This document shows positions 11,213 to 46,397 of a DNA stretch of 64,000 nucleotides, piece by piece (position 1 is the first letter of the stretch; the number at the start of each line of letters is the position of its first letter). The notes beneath the pieces were generated by a model that made no database searches, was not told the DNA's origin, and saw only the letters and a program-made list of their open reading frames with translations. A program made the position numbers and the translations under genes. The stretch comes from an uncultured Candidatus Bathyarchaeia archaeon (GTDB lineage: Archaea > Thermoproteota > Bathyarchaeia > Bathyarchaeales > Bathyarchaeaceae): the NCBI GenBank assembly GCA_964510635.1, contig CAZEBS010000007.1, forward strand, positions 22,386 to 86,385. The letters are read 5' to 3'.

Positions 11213-11763
11213 TTGAAATGAGCGCAAAAGCAGAATCTTGGCAAACAGCAGAAGTAGCTGGACCCAAAAAAGCTAAGGTTATTGTGAAACCTGAAGTAGC
11301 CGCAGCAATGGTAAAACGGGCAAAACGTCCGATTCTTGTTGTCGGATACTTGTCCACAAAAGCTGACAAAGACACAGGAAAGATGCTCGAGTATGCCATT
11401 CGCCTAAACAAAGCAATTGGAATCTCGATTGTTGCCACTGCACATACAATAAAGGGGTTCGTGAATCAAGGCTTCAATGATGCAGTTCAGATGTCCGCCA
11501 TGGATATTGGCAACAGGCTTAAAGACCCGACATGGACTGGCTTAGACGGAAAAGGCTCCTATGATGTTGCCTTATTCATGGGCTGGCCATTCTACATGGA
11601 GTATGTGATCTTGTCAGGGCTAAAGCACTTCTCTAAAAACCTTAAAACCATAAGCTTGGACAGATATTATAACCCGAATGCAAGCTGGTCCTTCCCCAAC
11701 CTCAAGGTTGAGGAATGGAATCAAAGTTTTGAAACAATAATAAAAACCTTAGGAGGAAAATAA
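11209..11763 (+). CDS. cdhB: CODH/ACS epsilon subunit
   Basis: ~180 aa, immediately after cdhA and overlapping it. Size and position fit archaeal CdhB. The start could be the TTG at 11209 or the ATG at 11218. Confidence 0.8.
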   Translation: MIEMSAKAESWQTAEVAGPKKAKVIVKPEVAAAMVKRAKRPILVVGYLSTKADKDTGKMLEYAIRLNKAIGISIVATAHTIKGFVNQGFNDAVQMSAMDIGNRLKDPTWTGLDGKGSYDVALFMGWPFYMEYVILSGLKHFSKNLKTISLDRYYNPNASWSFPNLKVEEWNQSFETIIKTLGGK

Positions 11764-11766
11764 AAA

Positions 11767-13152
11767 ATGTCAATGTTTGAAGACATCCCCGTGGATGTTG
11801 GAGTAATCTACGAAGGAGAAAGAATCCGAAGAAACAACATGCAAGTCGAATTAGGAGGACCAAAACAGCCAGCAAAGTTCGAACTAGTACGCGCAAAGAA
11901 GATGGACGAAGTCGAAGACGAAAAAGTAACCATTATTGGACCTGACCTCAAAGATTTGCCTGAAGGCGGCAACGTTCCTTTTGGCATTTACGTAGAGGTT
12001 GCAGGCAAAGACATTGAAGAAGACCTTGAAGGTGTAACCGAGCGCCGAATCCACGAATACCTTAACTTCATCGAAGGAATCATGCACCTAAACCAGCGCT
12101 ACGACATTTGGATACGTGTAAGCACGAAATCATTCCAGAAAGGACTTAACTCTTTCACATATGTCGGTAAAGTGTTGGCAAGACTCTACAAGAGCGAGCT
12201 GCCCTTCATCGAGAAAATCCAAATCACCTTCATAACTGACCCAGCGAAAGTCAAAGAAATGTATGACCAAGCAATGGAAATTTATGAAGCCCGAGACGCG
12301 AAAGCCAGAGGAATGAAAGACGACGAAGTTGACACATTCTATGGATGCACCCTGTGCCAATCCTTCGCGCCAACCCACATGTGCGTAATCACTCCCCAAA
12401 GATACTCAAACTGTGGCTCAATCAGCTGGTTCGACGGCAGAGCCTCTGCACAAGTCGACCCGAAAGGTCCAGTTTTCGCTATCGAAAAAGGAGAAATGCT
12501 TGACGCAGAAAAGGGAGAATTCTCTGGAATCAATGAATCCATCAAACAGAAGACTTTGGGCGCAGTTGACAAAGTCTGGATGTATACCGGCTTTGGTTAC
12601 CCACACACTTCATGTGGCTGCTTCGAGGCTCTGGCATTCTACATTCCAGAAGTCGAAGGCTACGGCATTGTTGACCGAGGCTTCAGAGGCGTAACAGTGA
12701 ACGGGCTGCCCTTCTCGACGCTAGCTGACTCTGGCGCAGGAGGCAGACAAGTAGACGGATTCCACGGAATATCCATTGAATACATGCGCTCACCCAAGTT
12801 CCTAGAAGCAGACGGCGGCTGGGACCGAGTAGTCTGGATGCCACAAAGCGTTAAAGACCGTGTCAAAGATTTCATGCCAGAAGCAGCAAAAACCAACGTA
12901 GCAACAGAAAACGACGCAAAAACAGTTGATGAACTTAAAGCCTTCCTGAAAGAGAAGAATCACCCTGTTGTCCAAAGATGGACTGAAGAAGCTGAAGAGG
13001 CACCTGCAGCTGAAGCAGAAGAAGCAGCAGAAGGAACAGTGTTTCCAGTTTCTACTGCAACTGTTGCCGCTGGCGGATTCAAGATAATCTTCAAAAACGC
13101 TAAAATCCACGCAGAAAAAGTAATCATTAAACGGGAAAAACCAAAAAGGTGA
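11767..13152 (+). CDS. cdhC: CODH/ACS beta subunit (acetyl-CoA synthase, A-cluster)
   Basis: The FYGCTLCQSFAPTHMCVITPQRYSNCGSISWFDGRA and HTSCGCFE motifs are typical of the ACS A-cluster domain. Acidic, Ala-rich C-terminal tail. Confidence 0.9.
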   Translation: MSMFEDIPVDVGVIYEGERIRRNNMQVELGGPKQPAKFELVRAKKMDEVEDEKVTIIGPDLKDLPEGGNVPFGIYVEVAGKDIEEDLEGVTERRIHEYLNFIEGIMHLNQRYDIWIRVSTKSFQKGLNSFTYVGKVLARLYKSELPFIEKIQITFITDPAKVKEMYDQAMEIYEARDAKARGMKDDEVDTFYGCTLCQSFAPTHMCVITPQRYSNCGSISWFDGRASAQVDPKGPVFAIEKGEMLDAEKGEFSGINESIKQKTLGAVDKVWMYTGFGYPHTSCGCFEALAFYIPEVEGYGIVDRGFRGVTVNGLPFSTLADSGAGGRQVDGFHGISIEYMRSPKFLEADGGWDRVVWMPQSVKDRVKDFMPEAAKTNVATENDAKTVDELKAFLKEKNHPVVQRWTEEAEEAPAAEAEEAAEGTVFPVSTATVAAGGFKIIFKNAKIHAEKVIIKREKPKR

Positions 13153-14363
13153 AGTTTATGCCCGAAAGGGCGGAAAAAGACTCTGACCTTAAACTTCCCC
13201 CCGAGCTCTTAGACCTCTTCACAGGTTTTGATGACCTGGAGCTTGAAGACGTCGACATCGAAGTGGATGAACTGGAGTTTGCGTATCAGCCAGGGTTCCT
13301 GCCTGCAATCAAAAGGATGGTTGCAGCAAGAGCCAAGCCAACATCTCTCTTAGATGCACCCTTTGCGCTTCCTGTACAGAAGTATCTAGGGCAAATCGTT
13401 GAAGTCACCCTTGGAGCCACAAAGAGTCAGGGCGGAACCCGTGGAAGGTCTATTGCCATCGGAGGAGAAAAGTCTCCTGCCTTCTACACTTTCGAGAATC
13501 CGACACTTAACTCGCCAATAATCTCTCTTGACGTATTCGACCAGAAAGTACCCATCCCCAAAGCAGTTCGAACCAACTTCAACGATGCAATAGAAGACCC
13601 TGTTTCGTGGGCAAAATTTGCTGTTGACAAGTTTGGAGCACAAATGATTACTCTCCATCTGGTCAGCATTGATCCACTGAACCCTAAGCCTTCAACACCT
13701 GCGGAAGCCGCAAAAACTGTTGAAGATGTTCTTCAGGCAGTTGATGTGCCCCTTGTTGTAGGCGGGTGTGGTGATCCTGAGAAGGACTTGGCGGTCTTTG
13801 AGAAAGTAACTGCTGCAGCTGAAGGAGAAAGACTCCTAATCAGCACTGTTACGTTAGACATGGATATAGAAAAGTCAGCTAAACTGATCAAGAAGCATGG
13901 ACATGTTGCCTTGGCGTTCTCTCCAATGGACCTGAACCAAGCAAGAGAACTGAACAGGCGCCTTCTCGAATATCTGCCAAAAGAGCAAATCATAATGGAC
14001 ACAACAACAGCGGCGCTAGGATATGGACTTGACTACGCCTACACCATCATGGAACGTGCACGATTAGCTGGTCTGATGGGGGACCCCGAGCTTCAGCAAC
14101 CCATGTCATCTGGAACAACCAACGCTTGGGCAGCAAGAGAAGCATGGAAGAAGATGGACCCACAATGGGGCGCTAGAGAACTCCGTGGACCTTTATGGGA
14201 AGCAGTGACTGGCTTAACCCTGTTGCTGGCTGGCGTTGACCTGTTCATGATGTTGCATCCTGCAGCCGTCAGAACTCTCAGAAACACCGTCAAAAGATTG
14301 ACAGAAAAACCGGGCACCGCAGATGCTGCAAAGTTTGCTAACTGGGTGTCAGCGAAATTCTAG
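13149..14363 (+). CDS. cdhD: CODH/ACS delta subunit (corrinoid Fe-S protein small subunit)
   Basis: 404 aa with TIM-barrel-like pterin-binding-type sequence. Its position between cdhC and cdhE supports the call. Start is GTG 13149 or ATG 13158. Confidence 0.8.
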   Translation: MKFMPERAEKDSDLKLPPELLDLFTGFDDLELEDVDIEVDELEFAYQPGFLPAIKRMVAARAKPTSLLDAPFALPVQKYLGQIVEVTLGATKSQGGTRGRSIAIGGEKSPAFYTFENPTLNSPIISLDVFDQKVPIPKAVRTNFNDAIEDPVSWAKFAVDKFGAQMITLHLVSIDPLNPKPSTPAEAAKTVEDVLQAVDVPLVVGGCGDPEKDLAVFEKVTAAAEGERLLISTVTLDMDIEKSAKLIKKHGHVALAFSPMDLNQARELNRRLLEYLPKEQIIMDTTTAALGYGLDYAYTIMERARLAGLMGDPELQQPMSSGTTNAWAAREAWKKMDPQWGARELRGPLWEAVTGLTLLLAGVDLFMMLHPAAVRTLRNTVKRLTEKPGTADAAKFANWVSAKF

Positions 14364-14376
14364 AAGGTGATATGGC

Positions 14377-15798
14377 ATGTCAGGAAAAGAAACTAAGGGC
14401 GGAATGAAACAACTCAGCCCAATCGACATTTACACTCTGCTTCCAAAAACAAACTGCAAAGAATGTGGAGAAGACAACTGTATGGCCTTTGCCACGAAAG
14501 TGGTGAACAGAGAAGTAAGCGTAGACCAGTGTCCTCCACTTTTGACCAAAAAGTTCGAAAAGAATTACCTGAAGCTCAAGGAGATGCTTAAGCCAGCAGT
14601 CAAAGAGGTGACTGTTGGTGCTGATGCCAGTGCAATCAAGGTCGGCGGAAAGCTGGTTATGTATCGTCACGAGTTCACATACTTCAATCCAACAGCCATT
14701 GCCATAGACGTGACAGACGAAATGTCTGACAAGGAACTGTCTGAACGCGTAAAGAAGACCCAAGAATTCACATACATATACATTGGTAATGACCTGAAGC
14801 TCCAAATGATTGCAGTCCGTTCCACTTCCGGCGACGCCGACAAATTCAAAGCCGCAGTTAAGAAGGTTGCAGACATAACTAAGCTGCCATTGATTCTGTG
14901 CTCCACCAACTCATCAGTCATGGAAGCTGGTTTGATGGCTATTCCTAAAGCTCGACCTCTCATCTACGCCGCCACAAAGGATAACTGGAAAGAAATGGCG
15001 GAGCTGGCATTGATGTATAATTGCCCGTTGACTGTTTCTGCTCCAAACAATCTTGATCTCCTCAGATCAATGGTTAAGACCATGAAGGAATACGGCGTCG
15101 AAGACCTAGTATTAGATCCAGGTACCTTCACCAGCGCAGGCCTTGGAGACACAATAAACAACTTCACTATGCTCCGCAGAGCAGCATGCGAAATGGGTGA
15201 CGAAATGGTAGGCTATCCGCTGATAGGAACTCCCATTACAGCATGGACTGAACCAGCAAACTCTCCGACAGTGAATGCTTGGAACGAAGCACATGTTGCT
15301 TCAATGCTCGTAACACGGTTCGCAGACATCCTCATCATGCATGGCACCGAAGGCTGGGCACTTCTCCCGCTGACTGTGCTAAGACAGAACATCTACACTG
15401 ACCCCCGAAAACCAGTTGCCGTAGAAGCAGGACTGAGAGCTATCGGAACTCCTGATGAAAACTCTCCAGTGCTAATGACATCAAACTTTGCGCTGACATA
15501 CTACACTGTAGAACAAGACATAGAATCCACAGGCAAGCCTGCATACCTTCTTGTCGTTGACTCTGAAGGAACAGCCATAGACAGTGGAGTCGCTGGCAGG
15601 AAACTGACTGCAGAAACTGTTGCGGATGCAATCAAAGAGAGCAACGTAGAAGAGAAGGTAAAGCACCGAAAACTGATAATTCCAGGTAAAGCAGCTCGCA
15701 TCAGCGGAGAAATCGAGGAACTGTCGAACTGGGAAGTTCTGGTTGGACCCCAAGACTCTTCAGGTATAGCTAAATTCCTTCAAGAGAAGTGGAAGTAA
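14377..15798 (+). CDS. cdhE: CODH/ACS gamma subunit (corrinoid Fe-S protein large subunit)
   Basis: N-terminal [4Fe-4S] motif NCKECGEDNCMAFATKVVNREVSVDQCP, 473 aa, last gene of the operon. A T-rich tract follows. Confidence 0.9.
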   Translation: MSGKETKGGMKQLSPIDIYTLLPKTNCKECGEDNCMAFATKVVNREVSVDQCPPLLTKKFEKNYLKLKEMLKPAVKEVTVGADASAIKVGGKLVMYRHEFTYFNPTAIAIDVTDEMSDKELSERVKKTQEFTYIYIGNDLKLQMIAVRSTSGDADKFKAAVKKVADITKLPLILCSTNSSVMEAGLMAIPKARPLIYAATKDNWKEMAELALMYNCPLTVSAPNNLDLLRSMVKTMKEYGVEDLVLDPGTFTSAGLGDTINNFTMLRRAACEMGDEMVGYPLIGTPITAWTEPANSPTVNAWNEAHVASMLVTRFADILIMHGTEGWALLPLTVLRQNIYTDPRKPVAVEAGLRAIGTPDENSPVLMTSNFALTYYTVEQDIESTGKPAYLLVVDSEGTAIDSGVAGRKLTAETVADAIKESNVEEKVKHRKLIIPGKAARISGEIEELSNWEVLVGPQDSSGIAKFLQEKWK

Positions 15799-17634: not shown

Positions 17635-17847
17635 CTAGTTCAGGAAGCTAGTTTCCGTTTTTATTGGAACATTGCTTCCGCATTTTTTACATTTAACCTT
17701 AGAACTGGTCACAGAAATTAGCCTGAAAGGTATCATACGTCCACAATTCTGGCATTTAACAAAGCGGAGTTTTCCACGGTCTTTTTTGTGGATGCTTTCA
17801 AGCAACGCCGTGAAGATGTTATAATCTTGGTTTTGTGGGACCTGCAT
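17635..17847 (-). CDS. Hypothetical zinc-ribbon protein
   Basis: 70 aa with CQNCG...CKKCG. Lies 6 nt downstream of the wHTH gene on the same strand. Confidence 0.4.
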   Translation of the reverse strand: MQVPQNQDYNIFTALLESIHKKDRGKLRFVKCQNCGRMIPFRLISVTSSKVKCKKCGSNVPIKTETSFLN

Positions 17848-24766: not shown

Positions 24767-25513
24767 CTACTTTTGTTTCGGCATTAATTTAGATTGCAGA
24801 TAATCTACAGCTGTTATTCTTATACCGCTTCTCTTCAATGCTATGAGGACACCACTGCCAATAATTGCCCCCATAAGACAATTCAAGGAATCTGCTATTG
24901 CGTAATACACGGTCAAAGGCGCCCAGAACGCATACAAGTCGGGGATTCCCCAGCCCAATACCCAGACGGCAATATTGTTACCTGTAATCACATCACCGCC
25001 TATACGGGCTATCCAAGCTAAACACCAAAGAGCTATTGGTAGGTATTTCTTGTTTCTGGTGACAATAGTGTTAACGATCCATTTCCTTACTGGAGGAATA
25101 ACGATAAGCGCTAGGACAAGCCAGTATTCCCATGTGATGATAGGCATTTGTTCATACCAAGCAAATGGGTGAAGGAACCATATCACAAGCTGACCAAGAA
25201 GTATCAATGTGGCTTCTTTCCATCGATTGAATAAAACGAGTCCACTCATTAATGCTGCCAGTGTTGGAGCTAGAAATGTTAGTACTCCGATTGAGGTTGC
25301 TGGGTTAACAATAGGAACTGCCCAGCCGAAGATTAAACCCGAGACTGTTCCATATATTGGACCTAACAAGGGTGCTGTTAAGCTTGAAAGTAAAACGCTG
25401 GAAACTGTTATTTGAGCAGAAGTTCCTGCAATGGGATAAACTGGCCAGAAGCTAACTGCAAGGAGAAGGGCAGTCCAGATAGCGATTAGGGCTATGTTGA
25501 TGCTACTGAACAT
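24767..25513 (-). CDS. Integral membrane protein (transporter S-component-like)
   Basis: Hydrophobic from MFSSINIALIAIW onward. I use the ATG at 25513. The track N-terminal extension to 25657 covers a conserved non-coding repeat and looks non-coding. Confidence 0.5.
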   Translation of the reverse strand: MFSSINIALIAIWTALLLAVSFWPVYPIAGTSAQITVSSVLLSSLTAPLLGPIYGTVSGLIFGWAVPIVNPATSIGVLTFLAPTLAALMSGLVLFNRWKEATLILLGQLVIWFLHPFAWYEQMPIITWEYWLVLALIVIPPVRKWIVNTIVTRNKKYLPIALWCLAWIARIGGDVITGNNIAVWVLGWGIPDLYAFWAPLTVYYAIADSLNCLMGAIIGSGVLIALKRSGIRITAVDYLQSKLMPKQK

Positions 25514-25629
25514 GCTTTTTTCTTTTGTTTCAACCAATATTTTTGCCTCAATGAGAGTTTGTTCGCTGTGTAATTTTTTACACTCTATCCCTGCCTCTGT
25601 ATATAAGATTAACTCTTTTTTTCGGCAGT

Positions 25630-25683
25630 TTTTCTGAAAAAATACTGTTTTCAACAATGTACCTCTATTAGGAGTCTAATATG
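25630..25683 (+). repeat. Copy B of the tripartite element
   Basis: tttttctgaaaaaatactgTTTTCAACAATgtacctCTATTAGGagtctAATATG. The blocks are at 25648-25658, 25665-25672 and 25678-25683. Confidence 0.6.
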
Positions 25684-25717: not shown

Positions 25718-25774
25718 CAGAAAAACAGAAAAACCATTTTTTCAACAATCTGCTGCTATTAGGTTCCTAATATG
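25718..25774 (+). repeat. Copy C of the tripartite element
   Basis: cagaaaaacagaaaaaccatTTTTCAACAATctgctgCTATTAGGttcctAATATG. The blocks are at 25739-25749, 25756-25763 and 25769-25774, 91 nt downstream of copy B. Confidence 0.6.
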
Positions 25775-25944: not shown

Positions 25945-26054
25945 TGAACAAACATTCACTTCGTAGAAACTAAATAAATATATGTTCAGTAAAAAGAAAA
26001 GGTTTATATACAAATAGTCAATATTCATCAGATTAATTGAATAAGAGGTGTTCA
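25945..26054 (+). promoter_or_regulatory. Promoter module of KaiC-like gene 1: upstream site TGAACAAACATTCA, TATA block TTTATATACAAA, AATATTC box, and SD AGAGGTG
   Basis: TGAACAAACATTCA at 25945-25958, then 44 nt, then TTTATATACAAA at 26003-26014, then 5 nt, then AATATTC at 26020-26026, with AGAGGTG at 26044-26050. The same architecture occurs at 27107-27219 and on the minus strand at 42463-42563. Confidence 0.65.
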
Positions 26055-26800
26055 GTGTGACGATTCCAAAAACAAGAACCATCGAATGGATTGACATAGG
26101 AGTAAAGGGACTGACAGATTTCATTCCTGGACTACCAAAAGGCGACGCAATTCTGATCCGAGGTGAACCAGGTACTGGGAAAACAATCTGCTGTCTACAA
26201 TTCCTTCATAAAGGAGCAGAACTAGGCGAAAAATGTCTATACATTACCACAGAAGAAACTCCCGAATCAGTAATGCGAACTGGAGCAGAACTCTGGTCCG
26301 ACTTCCCCGACCTGATCAGAGACGGAACAATACAGGTCATCAACATGTCCATAAGCGCAGAATACGCCAGCGAATACGGCATACTTGAAAAAGCAGAAGC
26401 AATGACTATTGCCGAAAAAGGATTTGCTGCACAACCCAAAGCAACCAGAATCGTAATCGACTCACTATCTTCCCTTGAGAGGCGCCTGTCTGATTATGAA
26501 GAATTCCGAGAAGTCTTTATGAGGTTGCTACTGGAAACCAAACGCAAAGGAGCAACTGTGATGCTTACCGCCGAAGGTATCCCCCTGACTCCGGACATCA
26601 CTGAATATCTCGTAGACCACTTGATATACCTTGACTACCGAAAACAAGACAATGAATGGACACGCGTGTACATTCTCCGAAAGTCACGAAGCGTACCCCT
26701 GAAACCTCAGATACTCAAGCTAGACATCAAACCAGGCGGTCTATCAGTCGAAGAAACACCATTCGCACTAAATCCTGTGTGGTTCCAAAGCAAAATCTAA
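26055..26800 (+). CDS. KaiC/RecA-superfamily ATPase, single-domain (paralogue 1)
   Basis: Walker A GEPGTGKTICCLQF, LYITTEETP, and Walker B RIVIDSLSSL. I place the start at GTG 26055, which aligns with the ATG of the paralogue behind the same AAGAGGTG-N6 context. Confidence 0.8.
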
Positions 26801-26816
26801 GCAAAGAATTGCTGCG

Positions 26817-26860
26817 CCTCACATCAACTGTGAGGACTACCCTTTTTTCTTCCTTTTTCT
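26817..26860 (+). terminator. Hairpin plus T-run terminator after KaiC-like gene 1
   Basis: CCTCACA-tcaac-TGTGAGG (26817-26835), followed by cccTTTTTTcTTccTTTTT. Confidence 0.5.
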
Positions 26861-27106
26861 AACTTAGTACAGTTGTTAAAAGTAAATCGTTAAGCAGGCG
26901 CTTTTATGTACATTGAGTTTGCTGTCGCTTGTTCGCTCCCGCCCCTTTTTTTGGGATTTTCGAGAGTGCATGAATGTGTATATTTTGTCCGCTGGGTGTT
27001 CTTGAGTTTAACAGGATTTTTCTGGGTTTGTTTTTTAGCAATAAATCACGTCTTAATTAATTAATTAAAAACTTTCTGGATTGAAATTTAATTTTTAATA
27101 ACATAT

Positions 27107-27219
27107 TGAACAAACATTCAGAGTTTAGAGAGTTACTAAATAAATATTCAGTAAAAAGAAAACATTTATATACAAATAGTCAATATTCTGCTGTTTAATT
27201 GAATAAGAGGTGATTCAGT
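27107..27219 (+). promoter_or_regulatory. Promoter module of KaiC-like gene 2 / amt; a duplicate of the 25945-26054 module
   Basis: TGAACAAACATTCA at 27107-27120, then 44 nt, then TTTATATACAAA at 27165-27176, then tagtc, then AATATTC at 27182-27188, followed by TTAATTGAATAAGAGGTG before the ATG at 27220. Confidence 0.65.
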
Positions 27220-27960
27220 ATGGCTATGCAGAAAACATCAAACATCGAATGGATCGACATCGGATTGGATGGCTTGGAGAAATTTATTCCCGGCATTCCA
27301 AAAGGCGACGCAATACTAGTGCGAGGTGAACCTGGCACAGGCAAAACGATCTGCTGTCTACAATTCCTCTACAGAGGAGCAAAACAAGGCGAGAAATGCC
27401 TGTACATTACCACGGAAGAAACCCCTGAAACAGTAATGCGCACTGGAGGAGAACTCTGGTCCGACTTTCCTAAACTGATAAGAAATGGAACAATAAAGGT
27501 CGTTAACCTTTCAATCACTGCAAGCTACGCCAGCGAATACTGTCTAGTAGACAAAACAGAAGCCATGGACATCGTTTTTAAAGGCTTGAGGGCACAACCC
27601 AATGCCTCAAGAATTGTAATCGACTCGTTATCTTCACTGTCTAGGCGGTTATCTGACTCTGAACAATTCCGCCAAGTCTTCATGAAAATACTGATGGAAA
27701 CCAAAGGCAGAGGAGCAACAACACTATTCAGCGCCGAAGGAATTCCCCCAACTCCTGGAATCACCGAATACCTTGTAGACCACTTGATATACCTTGACTA
27801 CCGAAAACACGACGTGGTCTGGACACGCGTTTTCCTTCTACGGAAGGCACGAAGCGTACCCATGAAACCTCAAGTATTGAAACTGAACATCAAGGCAGGT
27901 GGACTCTCAGTAGAAGAGATACCCTTCTCGCTGAAGCCTGTTTGGTTCGGCAGTGAATAG
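27220..27960 (+). CDS. KaiC/RecA-superfamily ATPase, single-domain (paralogue 2)
   Basis: Collinear with paralogue 1 and highly similar by eye over the full length (IEWIDIG..GL..FIPG.PKGDAIL.RGEPGTGKTICCLQFL...EYLVDHLIYLDYRK). Ends 11 nt before amt. Confidence 0.8.
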   Translation: MAMQKTSNIEWIDIGLDGLEKFIPGIPKGDAILVRGEPGTGKTICCLQFLYRGAKQGEKCLYITTEETPETVMRTGGELWSDFPKLIRNGTIKVVNLSITASYASEYCLVDKTEAMDIVFKGLRAQPNASRIVIDSLSSLSRRLSDSEQFRQVFMKILMETKGRGATTLFSAEGIPPTPGITEYLVDHLIYLDYRKHDVVWTRVFLLRKARSVPMKPQVLKLNIKAGGLSVEEIPFSLKPVWFGSE

Positions 27961-27971
27961 AAAGGTGATTA

Positions 27972-29294
27972 ATGATGACATTAGATCCAGCAACTGAAGC
28001 ATGGGCAGCGTTCCAGCAGAACTTCTTCGTAGGATGGGCACCCGTAGCCATCTTCATCATGGCAACTGCAGGTTTCGCCCTGTTCTATGCAGGAATGGTC
28101 CGCAAAAAGAACGTTACCCACACGATACTTCAAATCAACGTAGGATGGACACTAGCCTTTGTGGTCTACTTCCTCATCGGCTTCCCACTCGCATACTATG
28201 TATCGGCTCCAGTACTCGGGTTACCACAGTTCGTTCCCACAATAGCTAACCCACTGCCGCCATTGCTGTCTGAAACAGGCGCTTATGGCATAGCCGCAAG
28301 CCCCTCTGGCCTCGGTGACCTGGCAACATGGTTCAAAATGGCAATGTTCGCTATCACAGTCGTTGGCATCGTTCCCGGAGGCATGGCAGAACGTGACAAG
28401 TTCTGGGGCTGGATCCTAGCAACAATAGGTATCGCAGGTTTCATCTATCCCGTGGTTGAACACTGGGTTTGGGGTGGAGGCTGGCTATCTGAACTTGGTT
28501 TCATAGATTACGCAGGTTCAGGTGTAGTCCACCTTGTTGGAGGAACACTTGCACTAACTGGAGCGTATGTCATTGGTCCAAGGATCGGAAAGTTCGTCGG
28601 TGATAAAAAATTACCAAGAACATTCTTCGGACACAGTATTCCGCTATCTGTAATCGGTGCATGGCTACTGGCCTTCGGATGGTTCGGCTTCAACGTCGGC
28701 TCAAGCGTAGCCGGAGATGCAATGACAATCAACGTAGAACTCGCATGGGTCTCACTAACCACAGCAATGTGCATGGCTGGAGGCATGTTCGGTGCAGCAA
28801 TTACCTCAAGGGGTCACGTGCTAACAAGCATGGTTGGCTTGCTTGCAGGCGCTGTCGCAATATGTTCCGGAGCCGCAATCGTTCATCCACTAGCAGGCTT
28901 CGTAATCGGCATAATCGCGGGAGTAATCACAACCTTCACCATCGGATTAATGGAACACAAGCTGCACATCGACGACGCCTTGGGATGTTTCCCAGTTCAC
29001 GCAGCATGTGGAATCTGGGGACTACTCGCAACAGGAATCTTCGGTTACGCAGCTCTTGGAGCACATCCAATCTATGGATTCGCCGACATAGGAACATGGG
29101 TCAGCCAAATCGGAATTCAGGCAATCGGTGCAGTATCAATACTCGCCTGGGCGGGTGCAATGGGACTGATAATGTTCAGTGTGTTGAAGAAGCTTAACCT
29201 GCTAAGGGCTACAAGAGACCAAGAACTATACGGACTGGACATCGCAATACACAAGACGCTAGCATACCCCGAAGACATGATGGAAGACAAATAA
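27972..29294 (+). CDS. amt: Ammonium transporter
   Basis: 440 aa, ~11 TM. Carries AGFALFYAGMVRKKN, DYAGSGVVHLVGG, and the twin-His region FPVHAACGIWG typical of Amt/MEP. Confidence 0.9.
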   Translation: MMTLDPATEAWAAFQQNFFVGWAPVAIFIMATAGFALFYAGMVRKKNVTHTILQINVGWTLAFVVYFLIGFPLAYYVSAPVLGLPQFVPTIANPLPPLLSETGAYGIAASPSGLGDLATWFKMAMFAITVVGIVPGGMAERDKFWGWILATIGIAGFIYPVVEHWVWGGGWLSELGFIDYAGSGVVHLVGGTLALTGAYVIGPRIGKFVGDKKLPRTFFGHSIPLSVIGAWLLAFGWFGFNVGSSVAGDAMTINVELAWVSLTTAMCMAGGMFGAAITSRGHVLTSMVGLLAGAVAICSGAAIVHPLAGFVIGIIAGVITTFTIGLMEHKLHIDDALGCFPVHAACGIWGLLATGIFGYAALGAHPIYGFADIGTWVSQIGIQAIGAVSILAWAGAMGLIMFSVLKKLNLLRATRDQELYGLDIAIHKTLAYPEDMMEDK

Positions 29295-36123: not shown

Positions 36124-36798
36124 TTAGTCTTTGTTTACAAGCCTTAGTTTTTTGATGATAAGAACTCCGCTGTTGTTTTCGTAGTTTTTTTCAGCCTCTA
36201 TTATTTCGAGGCGTTTTTTGAAGATTGGAGCATCCAAAACAAGTGACTCATATTCGCCGCCTTCGCCAACCAAACTGATCTGATATTTTTCATGTAGTTC
36301 CACAAGCTTCTCTAACGTTTCTGTGTTTATTTCTCGCCCCAACCATGTTTGGTCCAAACCGTAAGCATACACTCCGACCATTATTACCTTGAATTTGAGG
36401 CGGAGCAGCTCTTTCATTATTTCCAGCGGGTCTTGGTGCCAAAGGGGCGCAACAGACTTGAGTCCCAGTTCATTGCATAATTGATCGATTCGTTCCTTCT
36501 GGTACGAGGACAACACAGCCCCAGTTACGACGCCATCCACATCAAGGGACGCAAGCAACTTCTTGAGGTCTTCAAGTTCCTTCTCTTTTATTCCCGAGGT
36601 TTCAGCTTTCACCAACGGAATCTCAAGCGCCCGGGCTATGTGGTCTGTCAAGTGAATGTTGGGAAAATGGAACATGTAGCTGTCAGAGCGTTTAGGAATC
36701 ATGGTGCCTAAAACTTCGATGGTGTGTCCCATCTGTTGTGCTCGATAAAGAGCAAGAATCGAATCCTTTCCGCCAGTAACTAATGCTGCCAACCGCAA
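36124..36798 (-). CDS. Diphthine-ammonia ligase (Dph6 / MJ0570-family PP-loop ATPase)
   Basis: MRLAALVTGGKDSILAL carries the PP-loop SGGKDS variant. 224 aa. Confidence 0.7.
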   Translation of the reverse strand: MRLAALVTGGKDSILALYRAQQMGHTIEVLGTMIPKRSDSYMFHFPNIHLTDHIARALEIPLVKAETSGIKEKELEDLKKLLASLDVDGVVTGAVLSSYQKERIDQLCNELGLKSVAPLWHQDPLEIMKELLRLKFKVIMVGVYAYGLDQTWLGREINTETLEKLVELHEKYQISLVGEGGEYESLVLDAPIFKKRLEIIEAEKNYENNSGVLIIKKLRLVNKD

Positions 36799-40992: not shown

Positions 40993-42462
40993 TTAATAGT
41001 CTAGATATTTCATTATTTCCCACGGAGTGACATAGAGGCAGTACTGGTTCCAGTCATTGGTCTTGTAGTCTATGAAGGCATCGAATATGTGACTTCCAAG
41101 TGTCTCATGAATAACTTCGTCGCTCTGCATAGCCTCCAAAGCGTCTCTCAATGTTGTCGGCAACTCTTTAATGCCCAGTGCACGTCTCCTTTCAGGGCTC
41201 AACTCGTAAACGTCTTCGTCAACGGGGTCTCCGGGATCAATTTTCTTCTTTATTCCGTCAAGCCCAGCCATCAGTATGCACGCAAAGCCTAGGTATGAGT
41301 TGCATGATGGATCAGCAGAACGTAATTCGGCGCGTTTGGCTGCAGCATGCTCTGGTCCTTTGAAGTATACGGGAACACGTACCATGGCTGACCGGTTGCG
41401 GCGGGACCACATTATGTAAATGGGAGCTTCAAAACCTGGCACGAGTCGTTTGTAGGAGTTTACTGTTGGGCAGTTTATGGCGGTTATAGCTCTGGCGTGT
41501 TCTAGTAAGCCTCCGATGAAGTATCTGCCTGTCTGGCTCAACTCTGCGTAATCGTCAGCTTGGTCATACATTGCGTTCTTTGTTCCTTTCCATAGGGATG
41601 CATGAACGTGCATGCCGCTGGCGTTGTCAAGATAAACGGGCTTAGGCATGAAAGTTGCAATTAATCCATGCTTCTTTGCGATGTTTTTGGCTACGAACTT
41701 GTAATAGAGTGTCCTGTCAGCTGTTTTCACTAATTCGCCATATTTGAAGTCGATTTCAATTTGTCCTGCAGTGGCAACTTCGTGGTGGTGCATTTCAATT
41801 TCTGTGTCAAAGTTTTCTTCCAGCAGTGAGGCAACTTCGTTTCGGTACTCAACAGTTGTGTCCTCTGGTGGTGGTCTGAAGTATGCTTCTTTCGGTCTTA
41901 ATGTGTGGCTACCTGGAGTGGTTTCTGGGGACTTTGGCACAACTCGGGGTGCTCCCCATGAGTCTCCTGCGCCGCCTTTTGGACTAACCCACATGTCCCA
42001 AACAAGGTTTGTAGGGTCTATGGAGCTGAAGACGAAATATTCCAGTTCTGGACCGAATAAGCCTTTGTAGCCCATGTCTGCTGCTGCTTTGACTGCTCTT
42101 TTAGCTACGTATCCTCTTGGGTCTACGTCAGAAGGTTCTGAGCCTCCGTAAGCTTCATAGACATCTCCTATGATTATGGCACTTCTCTGCATATCATCGG
42201 TTGTCCATGGTATGATAGCTAGCGTGTCAGGGTTTGGTTTGAGAATCATGTCTGATTCTTCGATGGTTTTGAATCCTCGTACTGATGATCCGTCGAAGCC
42301 GATGCCGGCGGTTAGGGCTTGTCCCTCCGTGTAGTGTTTTGCGGGTATCACTACGTCCTGCATTAGACCTCGGATGTCTACGAAGGCTGTGTGTACCCAC
42401 CTGATTTTGTTTTTCTTTAGAGTTTCTCTGGCTTTTGTAATGGCCTCCATGTTATTCACCAT
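40993..42462 (-). CDS. glnA: Glutamine synthetase, type I
   Basis: 489 aa. FDGSS..GF, GPELEYF, NASGMHVHASLW, and NSYKRLVPGFEAP...WSRRNRSAMVRVP are all GS-I signatures. Confidence 0.9.
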   Translation of the reverse strand: MVNNMEAITKARETLKKNKIRWVHTAFVDIRGLMQDVVIPAKHYTEGQALTAGIGFDGSSVRGFKTIEESDMILKPNPDTLAIIPWTTDDMQRSAIIIGDVYEAYGGSEPSDVDPRGYVAKRAVKAAADMGYKGLFGPELEYFVFSSIDPTNLVWDMWVSPKGGAGDSWGAPRVVPKSPETTPGSHTLRPKEAYFRPPPEDTTVEYRNEVASLLEENFDTEIEMHHHEVATAGQIEIDFKYGELVKTADRTLYYKFVAKNIAKKHGLIATFMPKPVYLDNASGMHVHASLWKGTKNAMYDQADDYAELSQTGRYFIGGLLEHARAITAINCPTVNSYKRLVPGFEAPIYIMWSRRNRSAMVRVPVYFKGPEHAAAKRAELRSADPSCNSYLGFACILMAGLDGIKKKIDPGDPVDEDVYELSPERRRALGIKELPTTLRDALEAMQSDEVIHETLGSHIFDAFIDYKTNDWNQYCLYVTPWEIMKYLDY

Positions 42463-42564
42463 TCATTCAACTTAATGTGAGAATATTACAAGTTTGTATA
42501 TAAATCTTTCTAATGTGCTGAAGGAAAGCTTATATACATCTTCCGTTAATGAACAAGTGTTCAT
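42463..42564 (-). promoter_or_regulatory. glnA promoter module plus the perfect palindrome ATGAACA-AG-TGTTCAT, shared with the divergent lrp promoter
   Basis: The minus strand reads TGAACACTTGTTCA (42563-42550), then 45 nt, then TTTATATACAAA (42504-42493), then cttgt, then AATATTC (42487-42481), then 18 nt, then ATG. The palindrome at 42549-42564 is a 7-2-7 perfect inverted repeat. It lies 13 nt downstream of a plus-strand TATA (CTTATATA, 42529-42536) that serves lrp. Confidence 0.65.
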
Positions 42565-42590
42565 GGTGAGACAAAAAACTAAAAAGTGTC

Positions 42591-43091
42591 ATGACCAATT
42601 ATTCAATAAAAGGAGGAAATACTAAACTGAATTACGATTCACCCCACAAAGTAGATGAAGTCGACCAGAAAATAATCCGCCTGCTACAAGAGGATGCCAG
42701 AAAAAGCTTCAACAAGATAGCTGACAGCCTCGGAATAGCAGTTGGAACAGCCTACAACCGCGTAAAGAACTTAGAGGACAGAGGAATCCTGAAGGGTTAC
42801 ACTATAATGTTGGATTCCGCTAAACTTGGTTACGGCCTGACTGCCCTGATACTTATTGAGGCAGAGGGACGGTTTCTTCCCGAAGTTGAGAAGGGGCTTG
42901 CCAAGCTAGATGAGGTTATATGCATTTATGACATCACTGGCGACTATGACATTGCTGTGGTTGCGAGGTTCAAGGACAGAACTGCATTGAACAGCTTCAT
43001 CAAGTCGGCATTGAAAATGCCCCATGTGAGCAGAACGGTAACAAACGTTGTGCTCAATGTTGTCAAGGAAGACTTCAGAGTAAAGGTGTAG
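42591..43091 (+). CDS. Lrp/AsnC-family transcriptional regulator (full length, HTH plus RAM)
   Basis: VDEVDQKIIRLLQEDARKSFNKIADSLGIAVGTAYNRVKNLEDRGIL (HTH_AsnC) plus a C-terminal RAM domain. Divergent from glnA. Confidence 0.8.
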   Translation: MTNYSIKGGNTKLNYDSPHKVDEVDQKIIRLLQEDARKSFNKIADSLGIAVGTAYNRVKNLEDRGILKGYTIMLDSAKLGYGLTALILIEAEGRFLPEVEKGLAKLDEVICIYDITGDYDIAVVARFKDRTALNSFIKSALKMPHVSRTVTNVVLNVVKEDFRVKV

Positions 43092-43667: not shown

Positions 43668-46397
43668 ATGAAGAACAAAATATCTATCGCAATTACAATG
43701 CTAATTACGCTTTTACTGGCAAGTTCAACTCTTGTAACTATTGCCTTCTGCCCCTTTCCACCATCAGGAACCGAAGTCCCAACATACAGCAAAATCCTTG
43801 TTAGCCCTAACCCTGTTGGCGTCAACCAGCAAGTTACCATCAACATATTCAATGCCATACCCACACTCACCAGCGAACCCTACTATAATATGACAGTTGA
43901 AGTAACAGACCCTACTGGGCACACCACCACACTGGGCCCCTATAACAGCGACACCACCGGAGGCACTTTCACTAACTTTGAACCTGACCAAGTCGGTATC
44001 TGGGAATTCCAAATGTTCTATCCAGGCCAAACACTATCTAGGGGTTGGATCCAATTACCTGGCGAAAGCGAAGTTTTTCAACTAACAGTACAGGAAGAAC
44101 CAGTAGGACGAGAAAGCTTTCCATCTCCCCCGGGTCCAGAAAGCTATTGGGAGACTCCAGTTAACGCAATGAATGCTGAAAAATGGTGTGACCACATGGG
44201 AGAATGGTGGGGTCTTAGCGGTATAACTTTTGAACAAACTGGTGCAAACTATCATGGCGGAAACTATAATCCATACACTGACTCGGTTTATGCTGGTCAC
44301 ATTCTCTGGACAAAGCCATGGGGTGCAGGTGGTGTAGCTGGTGGTGAATCAGGTATTGATGAAGTTACAGGACACTTCTGGACCACTAGGCAGTATCAAC
44401 CCCAATATGCACCGATAATATTGGAGGGTGTAATGTATTCCGTTCTGTGGACAACATCAATGAGGAGTGCAGCACATAACGGCATTGTCGCAACTGACCT
44501 GTTCACTGGAGAAACTCTCTGGACGATAGAAGACACCCAAGAACGGTTGAGAGTAGGCTGGTCGCCTACTTGGCACAACCTTAACGAATACGGAACATTA
44601 GGTCCCTACATCATAACCACAGGTACACACCCAGGAGTTACATCTAGTGGAACAGCGTACCACATTTACGATGCCACCACTGGCAAATACATGGCAAGCA
44701 TCATTAACGGCCAGAGCATGACCCTCACTATAGACGATGACCGAGACTTGGTTGGCTACTATCAAGAAGTCAGTGGTAGTGACCGCCGTCTGGTCCGTTG
44801 GGACATGACCGAATGTGTGGGAATGACAAGCAATGGCGAACCTGCTTTCGGATGGGGTCTGAACCAAGACGCACAATACCAGTTTGACCGTGGAGTAGAA
44901 TTCTCTGAACCAATATTCAATTTCGCCGAGATTGATGGAGTAACCGATGCTTCACTTCTTACAGGAGGCGGCTTTATGGGACAGCCATTCGCAATAAATG
45001 AAATAACTAACGATGAAGTAGTGTTCACTGGTGGTTTCACCTGGGGACAAGGATTTGGAGGAACAACAAACGGATGGCTAGTTGTAGGAGCCATGGACAA
45101 AAACACTGGAGCGCAGTTGTGGGCTAGAAACATCACATACACAGAATCTGAAACCATGTTGCCATACACAAGAACGGAAATGGGTATACAAGACGGGTTA
45201 TGGATCAACGCCAACATGCAGAACTTCATAGTTGAAGCTTGGGATACAAGAACAGGAGTGAAAGCATGGACATCAAAACTAACAGGCGATAACGGTGGCC
45301 CACCGCATTACTTCGACCAATTTAACCTCCGCTGGTCGCCTGGAGATGAGGGTATATCCTTCTACAGAGGCCATGGAGGAGACATATGGTGTATCGAACA
45401 TGAGGACGGAAACGTACGATGGTACACTAACACAACTAAACTCGTTGGCCCACCAGGAGCTGAAAGCCCATACGATATTTGGCCGCTATGGGTTTTCGAG
45501 TGCGACTGTATAACCAACAACGTGGCATACTTCCCCATTGGTGCCGAATATAACCCACCACTGTTCCCTGGAGCACAAATGTGTGCAGTAAACGTCACTG
45601 ATGGCTCTCTAGTGTGGTCCGAATTGGGTTTCTATATTAGATCCACATCGTGTGCATATGATATTCTGTTATCGCTGAATGCGTACGACAACCAGATATA
45701 CGCCTGGGGCAAAGGAGCAAGTGCAACTTCAGTCGCAGCATCACCAAAAGTTACAGTAAACGGAAATAGTGTAATAATTGAAGGTACAGTCATTGACGTT
45801 TCTGCAGGCACAAAACGGAACGATGTTGCAGCAAACTTCCCGAATGGTCTTCCATGCGTTTCTGATGCGAGTATGAGCAAATGGATGGAATACGCCTATA
45901 TGCAGCAGGCAAAGCCTGAAGATGTTGAAGGCGTTGAAGTATTCATAAAAGTCCAAGATCCTAATGGCGACTATTACTCAACCTATGTTACAACCGACGA
46001 GAATGGTGTATTTAGCCACATGTGGGCTCCATCCTTTGTAGGCGAATACCAGGTCACTGTGCTGTTCGAAGGCTCCAACTCCTATTGGCCTTCACAGGCA
46101 ACAACCACCTTCGGCGTAGACGAAGCTGCTGCCGCAGCAGATTTTCCGAGCGCAGAAGAGATTGCTGCTGATGCTGCTCAGAGGGTTATTGCCATGCTTC
46201 CACCGTATCCTGATGTTCCAACACAAGAGGAGATTGCTGCTGATGCCGCTCAAAGGACTATCAACATGCTTCCACAGTACCCAGAATACACTGCAACTGA
46301 AATACCTGCATACCAAACAATCGACATTGTCATCATCGTGCTCGTTGTTGTCGCTATAATCATCGGGCTGTACAGTATCTTCAGAAAACAAAAATAA
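43668..46397 (+). CDS. Large secreted surface protein with PQQ-like beta-propeller repeats and a C-terminal TM anchor
   Basis: 909 aa. N-terminal signal/TM (ISIAITMLITLLLASSTLV). Trp/Gly-rich repeats (...LWT..., ...AWT.KL.G...) are typical of PQQ-like propellers. The C-terminal anchor is IVIIVLVVVAIIIGLYSIFRKQK. Confidence 0.55.
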   Translation: MKNKISIAITMLITLLLASSTLVTIAFCPFPPSGTEVPTYSKILVSPNPVGVNQQVTINIFNAIPTLTSEPYYNMTVEVTDPTGHTTTLGPYNSDTTGGTFTNFEPDQVGIWEFQMFYPGQTLSRGWIQLPGESEVFQLTVQEEPVGRESFPSPPGPESYWETPVNAMNAEKWCDHMGEWWGLSGITFEQTGANYHGGNYNPYTDSVYAGHILWTKPWGAGGVAGGESGIDEVTGHFWTTRQYQPQYAPIILEGVMYSVLWTTSMRSAAHNGIVATDLFTGETLWTIEDTQERLRVGWSPTWHNLNEYGTLGPYIITTGTHPGVTSSGTAYHIYDATTGKYMASIINGQSMTLTIDDDRDLVGYYQEVSGSDRRLVRWDMTECVGMTSNGEPAFGWGLNQDAQYQFDRGVEFSEPIFNFAEIDGVTDASLLTGGGFMGQPFAINEITNDEVVFTGGFTWGQGFGGTTNGWLVVGAMDKNTGAQLWARNITYTESETMLPYTRTEMGIQDGLWINANMQNFIVEAWDTRTGVKAWTSKLTGDNGGPPHYFDQFNLRWSPGDEGISFYRGHGGDIWCIEHEDGNVRWYTNTTKLVGPPGAESPYDIWPLWVFECDCITNNVAYFPIGAEYNPPLFPGAQMCAVNVTDGSLVWSELGFYIRSTSCAYDILLSLNAYDNQIYAWGKGASATSVAASPKVTVNGNSVIIEGTVIDVSAGTKRNDVAANFPNGLPCVSDASMSKWMEYAYMQQAKPEDVEGVEVFIKVQDPNGDYYSTYVTTDENGVFSHMWAPSFVGEYQVTVLFEGSNSYWPSQATTTFGVDEAAAAADFPSAEEIAADAAQRVIAMLPPYPDVPTQEEIAADAAQRTINMLPQYPEYTATEIPAYQTIDIVIIVLVVVAIIIGLYSIFRKQK
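46155..46298 (+). repeat. 72-nt tandem duplication inside the surface-protein gene (a 24-aa unit, EEIAADAAQR.I.MLP.YP...)
   Basis: Unit 1 at 46155-46226 (gaagagattgctgctgatgctgctcagagg...). Unit 2 at 46227-46298 (gaggagattgctgctgatgccgctcaaagg...). Confidence 0.75.

Follow-up and report, generated by a model that had tools for sequence, protein, structure and literature searches.

A rigid TGAAY-N4-RTTCA promoter module at the divergent glnA and lrp genes and at other ammonium-related genes of Bathyarchaeia

Introduction

An Lrp gene beside the glutamine synthetase gene glnA and nitrogen operators are both already known from archaea. In Halobacterium, Lrp raises the expression of the adjacent glnA (PMC2894021), and in methanogens the NrpR protein uses the operator GGAA-N6-TTCC, with a Methanococcus maripaludis regulon that includes glnA and glnK-amtB (PMC2723118). 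The Lrp of Sulfolobus acidocaldarius (Sa-Lrp) is glutamine-responsive and binds the control regions of glnA, gltB, gdhA and its own gene (PMC3584215). Characterised archaeal sites of the feast/famine regulatory proteins (FFRPs), the family to which Lrp belongs, are odd 13-bp sequences of the form abcde-WWW-edcba with an A/T centre, and the Ptr2 consensus is a 13-bp GGACGA-WWW-TCGTCC (PMC2715240). The present analysis concerns a 64,000-nt stretch of an uncultured Candidatus Bathyarchaeia archaeon with a Ca. Bathyarchaeum-like genome (assembly GCA_964510635.1, contig CAZEBS010000007.1, positions 22,386 to 86,385), referred to here as the window, in which glnA and a divergent lrp gene are separated by a spacer that carries a perfect palindrome, the distal dyad O1. 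This spacer is interpreted as the shared control region of both genes, O1 as the high-affinity element of a nitrogen promoter module and the adjacent Lrp as its most likely reader, a reading to which we assign a probability of about 55%.

Bathyarchaeia are among the most abundant archaea of anoxic sediments, and we know of no genetic system for them. Searchable literature yielded nothing on cis-regulatory elements of Bathyarchaeia, no relevant promoter or transcription factor work and no description of the operator, module or regulon reported here. What is new is the sequence of the operator, the fixed module built around it, a regulon that includes kaiC-like/amt, asnS-like and dph6-like genes, and the occurrence of such a system in Bathyarchaeia.

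Results and discussion

The shared glnA-lrp control region and the promoter module

A preliminary description of the window, made from the sequence alone, had proposed that glnA has the same promoter blocks, in the same order and spacing, as two genes for KaiC-like proteins, and that the palindrome ATGAACA-AG-TGTTCAT (42549-42564) serves both glnA and lrp. Reading of the window sequence bears out the palindrome, all other base-level statements and the likeness of the three promoters (spacers of 45 versus 44 nt). O1 is located 45 nt upstream of the glnA TATA box on one side and 12 nt downstream of the lrp-side TATA box (CTTATATA, 42529-42536, plus strand) on the other. On the minus strand toward glnA, the spacer consists of TGAACACTTGTTCA, 45 nt, TTTATATACAAA-cttgt-AATATTC (42504-42481) and TTAAGTTGAATGA-ATG, while both KaiC-like promoters are composed of the dyad (A/T)TGAACAAACATTCA, 44 nt, TTTATATACAAA-tagtc-AATATTC and then TTAATTGAATAAGAGGTG. 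The element TTCA(G), which lies exactly 14 nt before the TATA box and was missing from the preliminary description, is also shared and divides the 44/45-nt spacer into 26/27 + 4 + 14 nt. The complete module has the layout TGAAY-N4-RTTCA, 26/27 nt, TTCA, 14 nt, TTTATATA, AATATT, TTGAAY, with dyad spacers that vary (e.g. ACTT, AAAC, GTTC). The proximal element is a weaker site or half-site that is situated 30-31 bp downstream of the dyad and ends 14 nt before TTTATATA; in the kaiC and amt promoters it has the form TAAAT-N4-RTTCA.

Counted from the start of the TATA box, the centres of the elements fall at approximately -52 for the dyad, -21.5 for the weaker site, +19.5 for AATATT and +41.5 for the TGAAY-led site. 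Because the separations of approximately 30.5, 41 and 22 bp are near whole helical turns, the elements are located on roughly one face of the helix. On the other side of O1, the lrp leaders contain 0.91 dyad-like sites per sequence, compared with 0.02 in shuffles (44-fold enrichment). Sites with at most one mismatch occur at offsets 42 and 76-78, with RTTCA following the RTTCA of the dyad by 42 nt in 25/32 unique sequences and the 76-78 position occupied in 17/32. The earlier idea that a single bound dimer suffices is not supported by this pattern, which speaks for several sites arranged in phase as an array.

Specificity and conservation

Within the 64 kb of the window, TTTATATA and TTTATATACAAA have exactly three copies each, at the glnA promoter and the two kaiC-like promoters only. 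The exact pattern TGAACA-N2-4-TGTTCA occurs once, against 0.06 expected. The block was not present in approximately 50 other upstream regions of the window, where TATA-like sequences differ and are weaker, and exact or near-exact searches of the window with the 14-mer and the 24-nt block returned the glnA copy only. Degenerate patterns were needed since the N4 and N5 spacers vary among gene classes. An RNA element was also considered and rejected, as the Rfam scan of the window gave one tRNA only.

When one genome per species was scanned for TTTATATACAAA-N5-AATATTC, approximately 40 scattered bacterial chance matches were obtained, together with nine matches in metagenome-assembled genomes (MAGs) of Bathyarchaeia/Ca. 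Bathyarchaeum. Five of these nine are glnA promoters, one of them in CP070820.1, and three are kaiC-like promoters at which the order kaiC-like 1, kaiC-like 2, amt is kept; the module is thus found at orthologous glnA loci in five further genomes and at orthologous kaiC loci in three. Alignment of the glnA-lrp spacers from six genomes, the window included, exhibits five invariant blocks with variable sequence between them. The invariant sequence comprises the glnA core promoter and leader, TGAAGGAAAGCTTATATA, AATGAACAAGTGTTCATG and the lrp Shine-Dalgarno sequence, and the lrp-side block GAAGGAAAGCTTATATA is invariant in this alignment and in 30+ metagenomic loci. As only 33.5% of the four-fold degenerate glnA sites are invariant among five genomes of the alignment, the spacer blocks are under selection. 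O1 itself is invariant or nearly so across 33 unique glnA-lrp regions.

The ammonium-assimilation regulon

JGI metagenomes were scanned with the pattern TGAAY-N4-RTTCA-N{20,34}-TTCA-N14-TTTATATA, in which the long gap was left free. Although any gap from 20 to 34 nt was allowed, 86 of the 127 matches have a gap of either 26 nt (33 matches) or 27 nt (53 matches), with one to seven matches at each other size. With the downstream-gene counts restricted to gaps of 26-28 nt, the module precedes GlnA (31 matches), a 350-aa protein with an Asn_synthase domain only and without a glutaminase domain (18), KaiC-like 1 (10), KaiC-like 2 (16), Amt directly (4), a 227-aa diphthine-ammonia ligase (Dph6-like) paralogue (3) and a small zinc-ribbon protein (1), while about eight matches appear to be due to chance. 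Every assigned member transports or consumes ammonium, and the module genes constitute an ammonium-assimilation regulon.

That the module marks a shared regulon and is not an artefact of duplication had been suggested in the preliminary description, and this is now strongly supported, the module preceding five unrelated ammonium-gene families in many Bathyarchaeia. A non-regulatory origin of the likeness would require either generic strong promoters or copying along with the tandem duplication of kaiC. The two kaiC promoters do belong to a 1163-bp tandem duplication (D1, D2), and TTTATATA is the archaeal TATA consensus. However, the other upstream regions of the window are without the block, and the non-paralogous glnA, amt, Asn-synthase-domain and Dph6-like genes in many genomes carry the module with its spacing kept to the nucleotide. 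Between the blocks the gene classes share no conserved sequence, and the module therefore did not arise as a copied stretch. Generic promoters and a duplication artefact were rejected on these grounds, and we regard this explanation as highly improbable.

Several elements that the scan did not demand are conserved in all classes: GAAA, as the transcription factor B recognition element (BRE), before the TATA box, AAT(A)TT at +17..+22 and TTGAAY at +34..+39 from the TATA start, the last of these in all six classes. This downstream conservation could be read as the work of two regulators. For Lrp or another factor, the dyad together with the BRE-proximal site would then form an upstream activating sequence, in keeping with the typically upstream position of archaeal activators and the activation of glnA by Halobacterium Lrp, and a separate repressor would occupy the TATA-to-Shine-Dalgarno block ACAAA-N5-AATATTY-N10-TTGAAY, whose own inverted symmetry, (R)TTC(A)-N10-TGAAY, has its centre at the predicted start site. 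Yet the same block repeats the TGAAY/RTTCA pentamer in helical phase with the dyad, for which a single protein is the simpler account, and its parts may be mere core-promoter element (AT-rich -10) and ribosome-binding region. A second regulator gene is linked to none of the loci, and we judge the involvement of two regulators to be rather improbable.

Side observations on the regulon genes concern their arrangement. The two paralogous single-domain KaiC-like genes precede amt in an order conserved in Bathyarchaeia (the window and three further genomes); in one of these genomes (L002) the kaiC genes are only ~20 nt apart with one promoter for both, and in other lineages the module is directly at amt. 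No description of a link between KaiC-like proteins and Amt was found in searchable literature, and glnK does not follow amt in the window or in the three further genomes. In the window, the weaker sites of the kaiC promoters (25975-25988, 27137-27150) read as the TATA-like CTGAACATATATTTATTTAG on the opposite strand, 12-14 nt before the dyad, an arrangement shared with the lrp promoter between glnA and lrp. Bidirectional activity of the kaiC modules is one possibility, and descent from a control region of the glnA-lrp type another. The Dph6-like class has a long leader (~75-80 nt), and in two of its three loci a second inverted repeat, TGAAC-N6-RTTCA (e.g. cTGAACAAAAACGTTCAaca), directly follows the start-site TGAAC. 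The canonical dph6 of the window (36124-36798) has no module.

The glnA-linked Lrp as candidate reader of the dyad

The product of the lrp gene probably reads the dyad, binding being inferred by association. The gene is divergent from glnA in 36/36 loci, composed of the window, five genomes and 30/30 metagenomic glnA-type modules with sufficient flanking DNA; these 30 include two lineages in which Lrp is merely 66% identical and the linkage is kept. In all glnA loci, 12-14 nt separate the lrp-strand TATA box from the dyad, which lies over the predicted lrp start site, and relative to the glnA TATA box, too, the dyad keeps one upstream position, as the preliminary description had expected from the window. 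This geometry is kept in one metagenomic locus (L058) despite an lrp leader of only ~19 nt. In a further metagenomic sequence (L160, 2372-4700, minus strand) amt, an lrp homologue and a 124-aa open reading frame (ORF) without a Pfam match form an operon driven by the module; the homologue is the second gene (153 aa, 60% identical) and its DNA-contact residues are unchanged. Apart from this lrp, no other linked regulator was found near the asnS-like, dph6-like and amt loci.

The 166-aa lrp ORF (42591-43091, plus strand) contains PF13404/PF13412 at residues 22-68 and PF01037 at residues 87-156, so that both the N-terminal AsnC-type helix-turn-helix (HTH) and the C-terminal ligand-binding (RAM) domain are present, and the alignments to the Protein Data Bank (PDB) entry 8q90 and to PH1519 are full-length. 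The closest PDB entry is 8q90 (1e-28), identical (100%) to the Lrp encoded beside glnA in Haloferax mediterranei. Among eight NCBIfam families, the best is TranRegLrp_Halo (NF041396) at 120 bits, followed by LysM at 94.9. At the six positions through which FFRPs contact DNA, 28/30 Lrps have FAVGTY and the other two differ by conservative changes, and the half-site is invariant alongside them. The contact code (PMC2715240) predicts T at position a from Thr37, as observed, and is without precedent for positions c-e.

A number of points weigh against this assignment. The score of 120 bits is below the equivalog cutoff of 190 for the haloarchaeal Lrp. The contact code assigns A to position b in Gly36 proteins, whereas the dyad has G there, and the code matches the first base of the dyad only. 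The dyad is even (5-4-5, 14 bp), tolerates G/C in its spacer and fails the abcde-WWW-edcba form; E. coli Lrp and Ss-LrpB are reportedly described with 15-bp sites, so half-site spacing is not fixed in FFRPs. TGAAY-N4-RTTCA was not found in the haloarchaeal glnA-lrp spacers of three genera. The scan demanded the dyad, TTCA and TATA, which skews the regulon list to perfect modules. With respect to the sign of regulation, the consensus TATA/BRE and the start-site half-site favour ligand-dependent repression, while the upstream site favours activation. Finally, the dyad can be written TGAA-N6-TTCA, which is the geometry of the operator of NrpR, a protein that controls glnA and amt in methanogens.

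This last point leads to the possibility that the reader is encoded elsewhere, with a 2-oxoglutarate-sensing repressor of the NrpR type as the likeliest candidate. Such a repressor would occupy the strong distal operator and, through cooperativity, the weak ones next to the BRE and over the start site, and lrp would be a regulon member repressed at its own start site and not the reader. The preliminary description had held the operator to be unlike that of NrpR, and this stands for the outer bases, which consistently differ from GGAA/TTCC, but not for the spacing or for 6/8 specified bases, which TGAA-N6-TTCA and GGAA-N6-TTCC share. The M. maripaludis NrpR regulon also holds glnA and glnK-amtB (PMC2723118), the dyad at the predicted lrp start site has the classical position of a repressor operator, the even dyad misfits the FFRP 13-bp rule, and a consensus TATA box suits control by repression. 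The target-gene dyad, however, is 45 nt upstream of TATA and out of reach for a simple occluding repressor. An NrpR domain was not seen in the 39 window proteins or the 10 regulon-gene neighbours, a search that covered no whole Bathyarchaeia genome, and no relevant link between NrpR and Bathyarchaeia was found in searchable literature. The 36/36 linkage of dyad and lrp and the amt-lrp operon are left unexplained as well. Canonical GGAA-N6-TTCC does occur in the window, though at places other than the three module promoters; the pair inspected lies within a small ORF. We consider an NrpR-type reader unlikely, and the glnA-linked Lrp remains the preferred candidate.

The inspected pair consists of two exact GGAA-N6-TTCC repeats 23 nt apart (17643-17679), whose minus strand is part of a small zinc-ribbon-like ORF (KCKKCGS...); it is probably a product of chance.

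Proposed mechanism

The sequences establish the module, its conservation, the genes that it precedes and its tie to lrp. With Lrp as the reader, a mechanism can be outlined in which the identities of binder and effector, the positions of transcription start and the direction of regulation are what we infer. An Lrp dimer would bind O1 first and then assemble cooperatively onto the weaker in-phase sites, in the manner of Lrp-family octamers. O1 would span approximately -12 to +3 of the predicted lrp promoter, with one further site in the leader and another overlapping the start codon, and Lrp bound over the lrp start region would block the recruitment of polymerase and give negative autoregulation. 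At the target genes, the complex would adjoin the BRE and extend to the start site, where it could help or hinder the basal factors, and the effector that chooses between help and hindrance would be an amino acid, plausibly glutamine. The genes of the module would in this way be co-regulated with ammonium supply. Activation of the targets is favoured by the upstream position of the dyad and by the haloarchaeal and Sulfolobus precedents, ligand-dependent repression by the consensus TATA/BRE and the start-site half-site, and a dual role of Lrp at its targets is plausible.

Genes and features of the window

The coordinates of the features are collected in Table 1. Transcription is predicted to begin near 42472-42476 (minus strand) for glnA and within 42556-42562 (plus strand) for lrp. 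The glnA ORF (40993-42462, minus strand) is confirmed as glutamine synthetase by Pfam, and its product scores 588.6 bits against NCBIfam TIGR00653 (cutoff 429). From the alignments, the second ATG (42450), behind a GGTG Shine-Dalgarno sequence, is probably the conserved glnA start. For lrp, the ATG at 42591 given in the preliminary description is probably misplaced by 36 nt. The alignments exhibit an invariant GGAGG 10 nt before position 42627, where relatives have ATG or TTG and many others have CTG like the window, and homologues of 154 aa are numerous in databases, gene callers yielding 146-, 154- or 166-aa forms. On these grounds the conserved lrp start is most likely at CTG 42627, and the window gene may begin with a near-cognate CTG codon. 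The KaiC-domain ORFs (26048-26800 and 27220-27960) both encode single-domain KaiC-like ATPases according to Pfam, and the start of the first is probably GTG 26057.

Table 1. Positions of genes, promoter elements and dyad-like sites in the window
Feature	Coordinates	Strand	Remarks
glnA, type I glutamine synthetase	40993..42450	-	Pfam; NCBIfam TIGR00653; ORF also reaches ATG 42462
lrp, Lrp/AsnC (FFRP) regulator, candidate dyad reader	42627..43091	+	Pfam HTH_AsnC and AsnC_trans_reg; ORF also reaches ATG 42591
Distal dyad O1, ATGAACA-AG-TGTTCAT	42549..42564	.	core TGAAY-N4-RTTCA at 42550-42563
Proximal half-site TTCA(G)	42519..42522	-	exactly 14 nt upstream of glnA TTTATATA, 27 nt from O1
lrp BRE/TATA block GAAGGAAAGCTTATATA	42520..42536	+	overlaps proximal half-site of opposite strand; predicted TATA role
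glnA core promoter TTTATATACAAA-cttgt-AATATTC	42481..42504	-	consensus TATA and AT-rich element ~10 nt before predicted start site
glnA leader TTAAGTTGAATGAATGGTGaataac	42451..42480	-	half-site TGAAT 42469-42465 near predicted start site; GGTG Shine-Dalgarno 42460-42457
O2-like site TGACCAATTATTCA, lrp leader	42592..42605	+	1 mismatch; RTTCA 42 nt after O1 RTTCA
O3-like site TGAATTACGATTCA, overlapping lrp start codon	42628..42641	+	perfect TGAAY-N4-RTTCA match
lrp Shine-Dalgarno GGAGG and conserved start position	42612..42629	+	alignments
kaiC-like 1 promoter	25945..26056	+	dyad 25945-25958; weaker site TAAATATATGTTCA 25975-25988; TATA block 26003-26026; TGAAT 26038-26042; Shine-Dalgarno
kaiC-like 2/amt promoter	27107..27219	+	dyad 27107-27120; weaker site TAAATAAATATTCA 27137-27150; TATA block 27165-27188; TGAAT 27200-27204
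Regulon genes	26057..29294	+	Pfam; kaiC-like 1 26057-26800, kaiC-like 2 27220-27960, amt 27972-29294

Other features of the window were observed outside of these loci. A 46-nt direct repeat (76% identical) occurs at 25638-25683 and 25729-25774, 91 nt apart, and covers the start region of a 296-aa ORF (24767-25657, minus strand) without a Pfam match; a long T-rich tract runs from this repeat to the kaiC1 dyad. A 72-nt tandem duplication (46140-46283, 76% identical) is found near the 3' end of a 909-aa PQQ/filamin-repeat gene downstream of lrp. The region 8855-15798 encodes a CODH/acetyl-CoA synthase cluster (Prismane/CdhA-like, CdhC and two CdhD-family genes), which we regard as consistent with reports of an acetogenic, Wood-Ljungdahl way of life in Bathyarchaeia.

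Significance

The control region offers a first testable picture of nitrogen control in Bathyarchaeia. The rigid signature of the module lets nitrogen-responsive genes be called from MAGs and metatranscriptomes, and it singles out one small protein and one 14-bp site for simple in vitro testing. The unexpected regulon members, namely the KaiC-like ATPases, the glutaminase-less Asn-synthase-domain protein and the Dph6 paralogue, are candidates for new ammonium-handling functions.

Comparison with known systems

The NrpR operator of methanogens resembles the dyad in being a 14-bp inverted repeat with inner GAA-N6-TTC, and the NrpR regulon resembles that of the module in being centred on glnA and ammonium transport. 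The dyad differs in its outer bases, T/A and not G/C, and in its fifth and tenth positions, which are constrained (Y/R). Placement differs as well. Work on M. maripaludis reportedly found NrpR operators at the start site or beyond it. The complete dyad, by contrast, precedes TATA by 44-45 nt at glnA, kaiC, amt, asnS-like and dph6-like genes and has an NrpR-like placement only for lrp. To our knowledge, an NrpR protein is not known in Bathyarchaeia.

With respect to promoter architecture, Ptr2 of Methanocaldococcus jannaschii, in work by Ouhammouch et al. from 2003 and 2005, is said to use two Lrp-type sites upstream of TATA, the proximal one near the BRE, and to be autoregulated. The module resembles this upstream activating sequence in having two sites upstream of TATA with the proximal one near the BRE. 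The TATA boxes of Ptr2-dependent promoters are reportedly weak, and the module differs from them in its consensus TATA and its start-site half-site.

FL11 (PH1519) is the second-closest solved structure to the window Lrp (1e-26), and its half-site TGAAA resembles TGAAY. Its autoregulatory and lysine-operon sites, TGAAA-WWW-TTTCA, are unlike the dyad in being odd (5-3-5) with an A/T centre, its contact residues are L/A/E/S/T/H compared with F/A/V/G/T/Y in the window Lrp, and its effector is lysine. Grp ST1022 of S. tokodaii, an Lrp-family protein tied to glutamine, is among the PDB matches of the window Lrp. The passages available on Sa-Lrp describe a bipartite mode of binding in which contacts in the minor groove are important, and they name no consensus dyad (PMC3584215). 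Sa-Lrp and ST1022 are more distant in sequence from the window Lrp, and the portion of the literature available on them describes no fixed promoter module.

The haloarchaeal Lrp (Halobacterium salinarum OE3923F; Haloferax mediterranei HFX_RS01210, PDB 8q90; NF041396) is the closest solved structure and the best NCBIfam family for the window Lrp and, like the window gene, is encoded adjacent to and divergent from glnA, although a Natrinema gene does not adjoin glnA. The glnA-lrp spacer is 126 bp in Haloferax, Haloquadratum and Haloplanus, and in place of TGAAY-N4-RTTCA these spacers contain a conserved block, AATTGGATATTCGTAAAATTC, which is invariant in the three genera (2875-3000 in each of the three sequences compared). 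In Haloferax the block has the form GAAT-N5-ATTC, which loosely recalls the GAAY-N4-RTTC core. Conservation of the operator into haloarchaea was considered and rejected, as TGAAY-N4-RTTCA is absent there and the resemblance of GAAT-N5-ATTC is weak. The haloarchaeal Lrp literature covered reports no binding site, and the targets described there (peptide/phosphate transport, korAB, sirR) differ from those of the module, with no kaiC-like/amt, Asn-synthase-domain or Dph6-like member.

Taken jointly, these comparisons permit a wider reading that we put forward tentatively, as possible but short of an even chance: a lineage-wide multi-site code of ~110 bp, in which a glnA-linked Lrp, a deep orthologue of the haloarchaeal Lrp, would act as master nitrogen regulator instead of NrpR, through an even TGAAY-N4-RTTCA site unlike characterised FFRP sites and with a pair of single-domain KaiC-like proteins, not GlnK, as the partners of Amt. 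In its gene arrangement, the Bathyarchaeia locus extends the haloarchaeal partnership of Lrp and glnA to a distant archaeal lineage.

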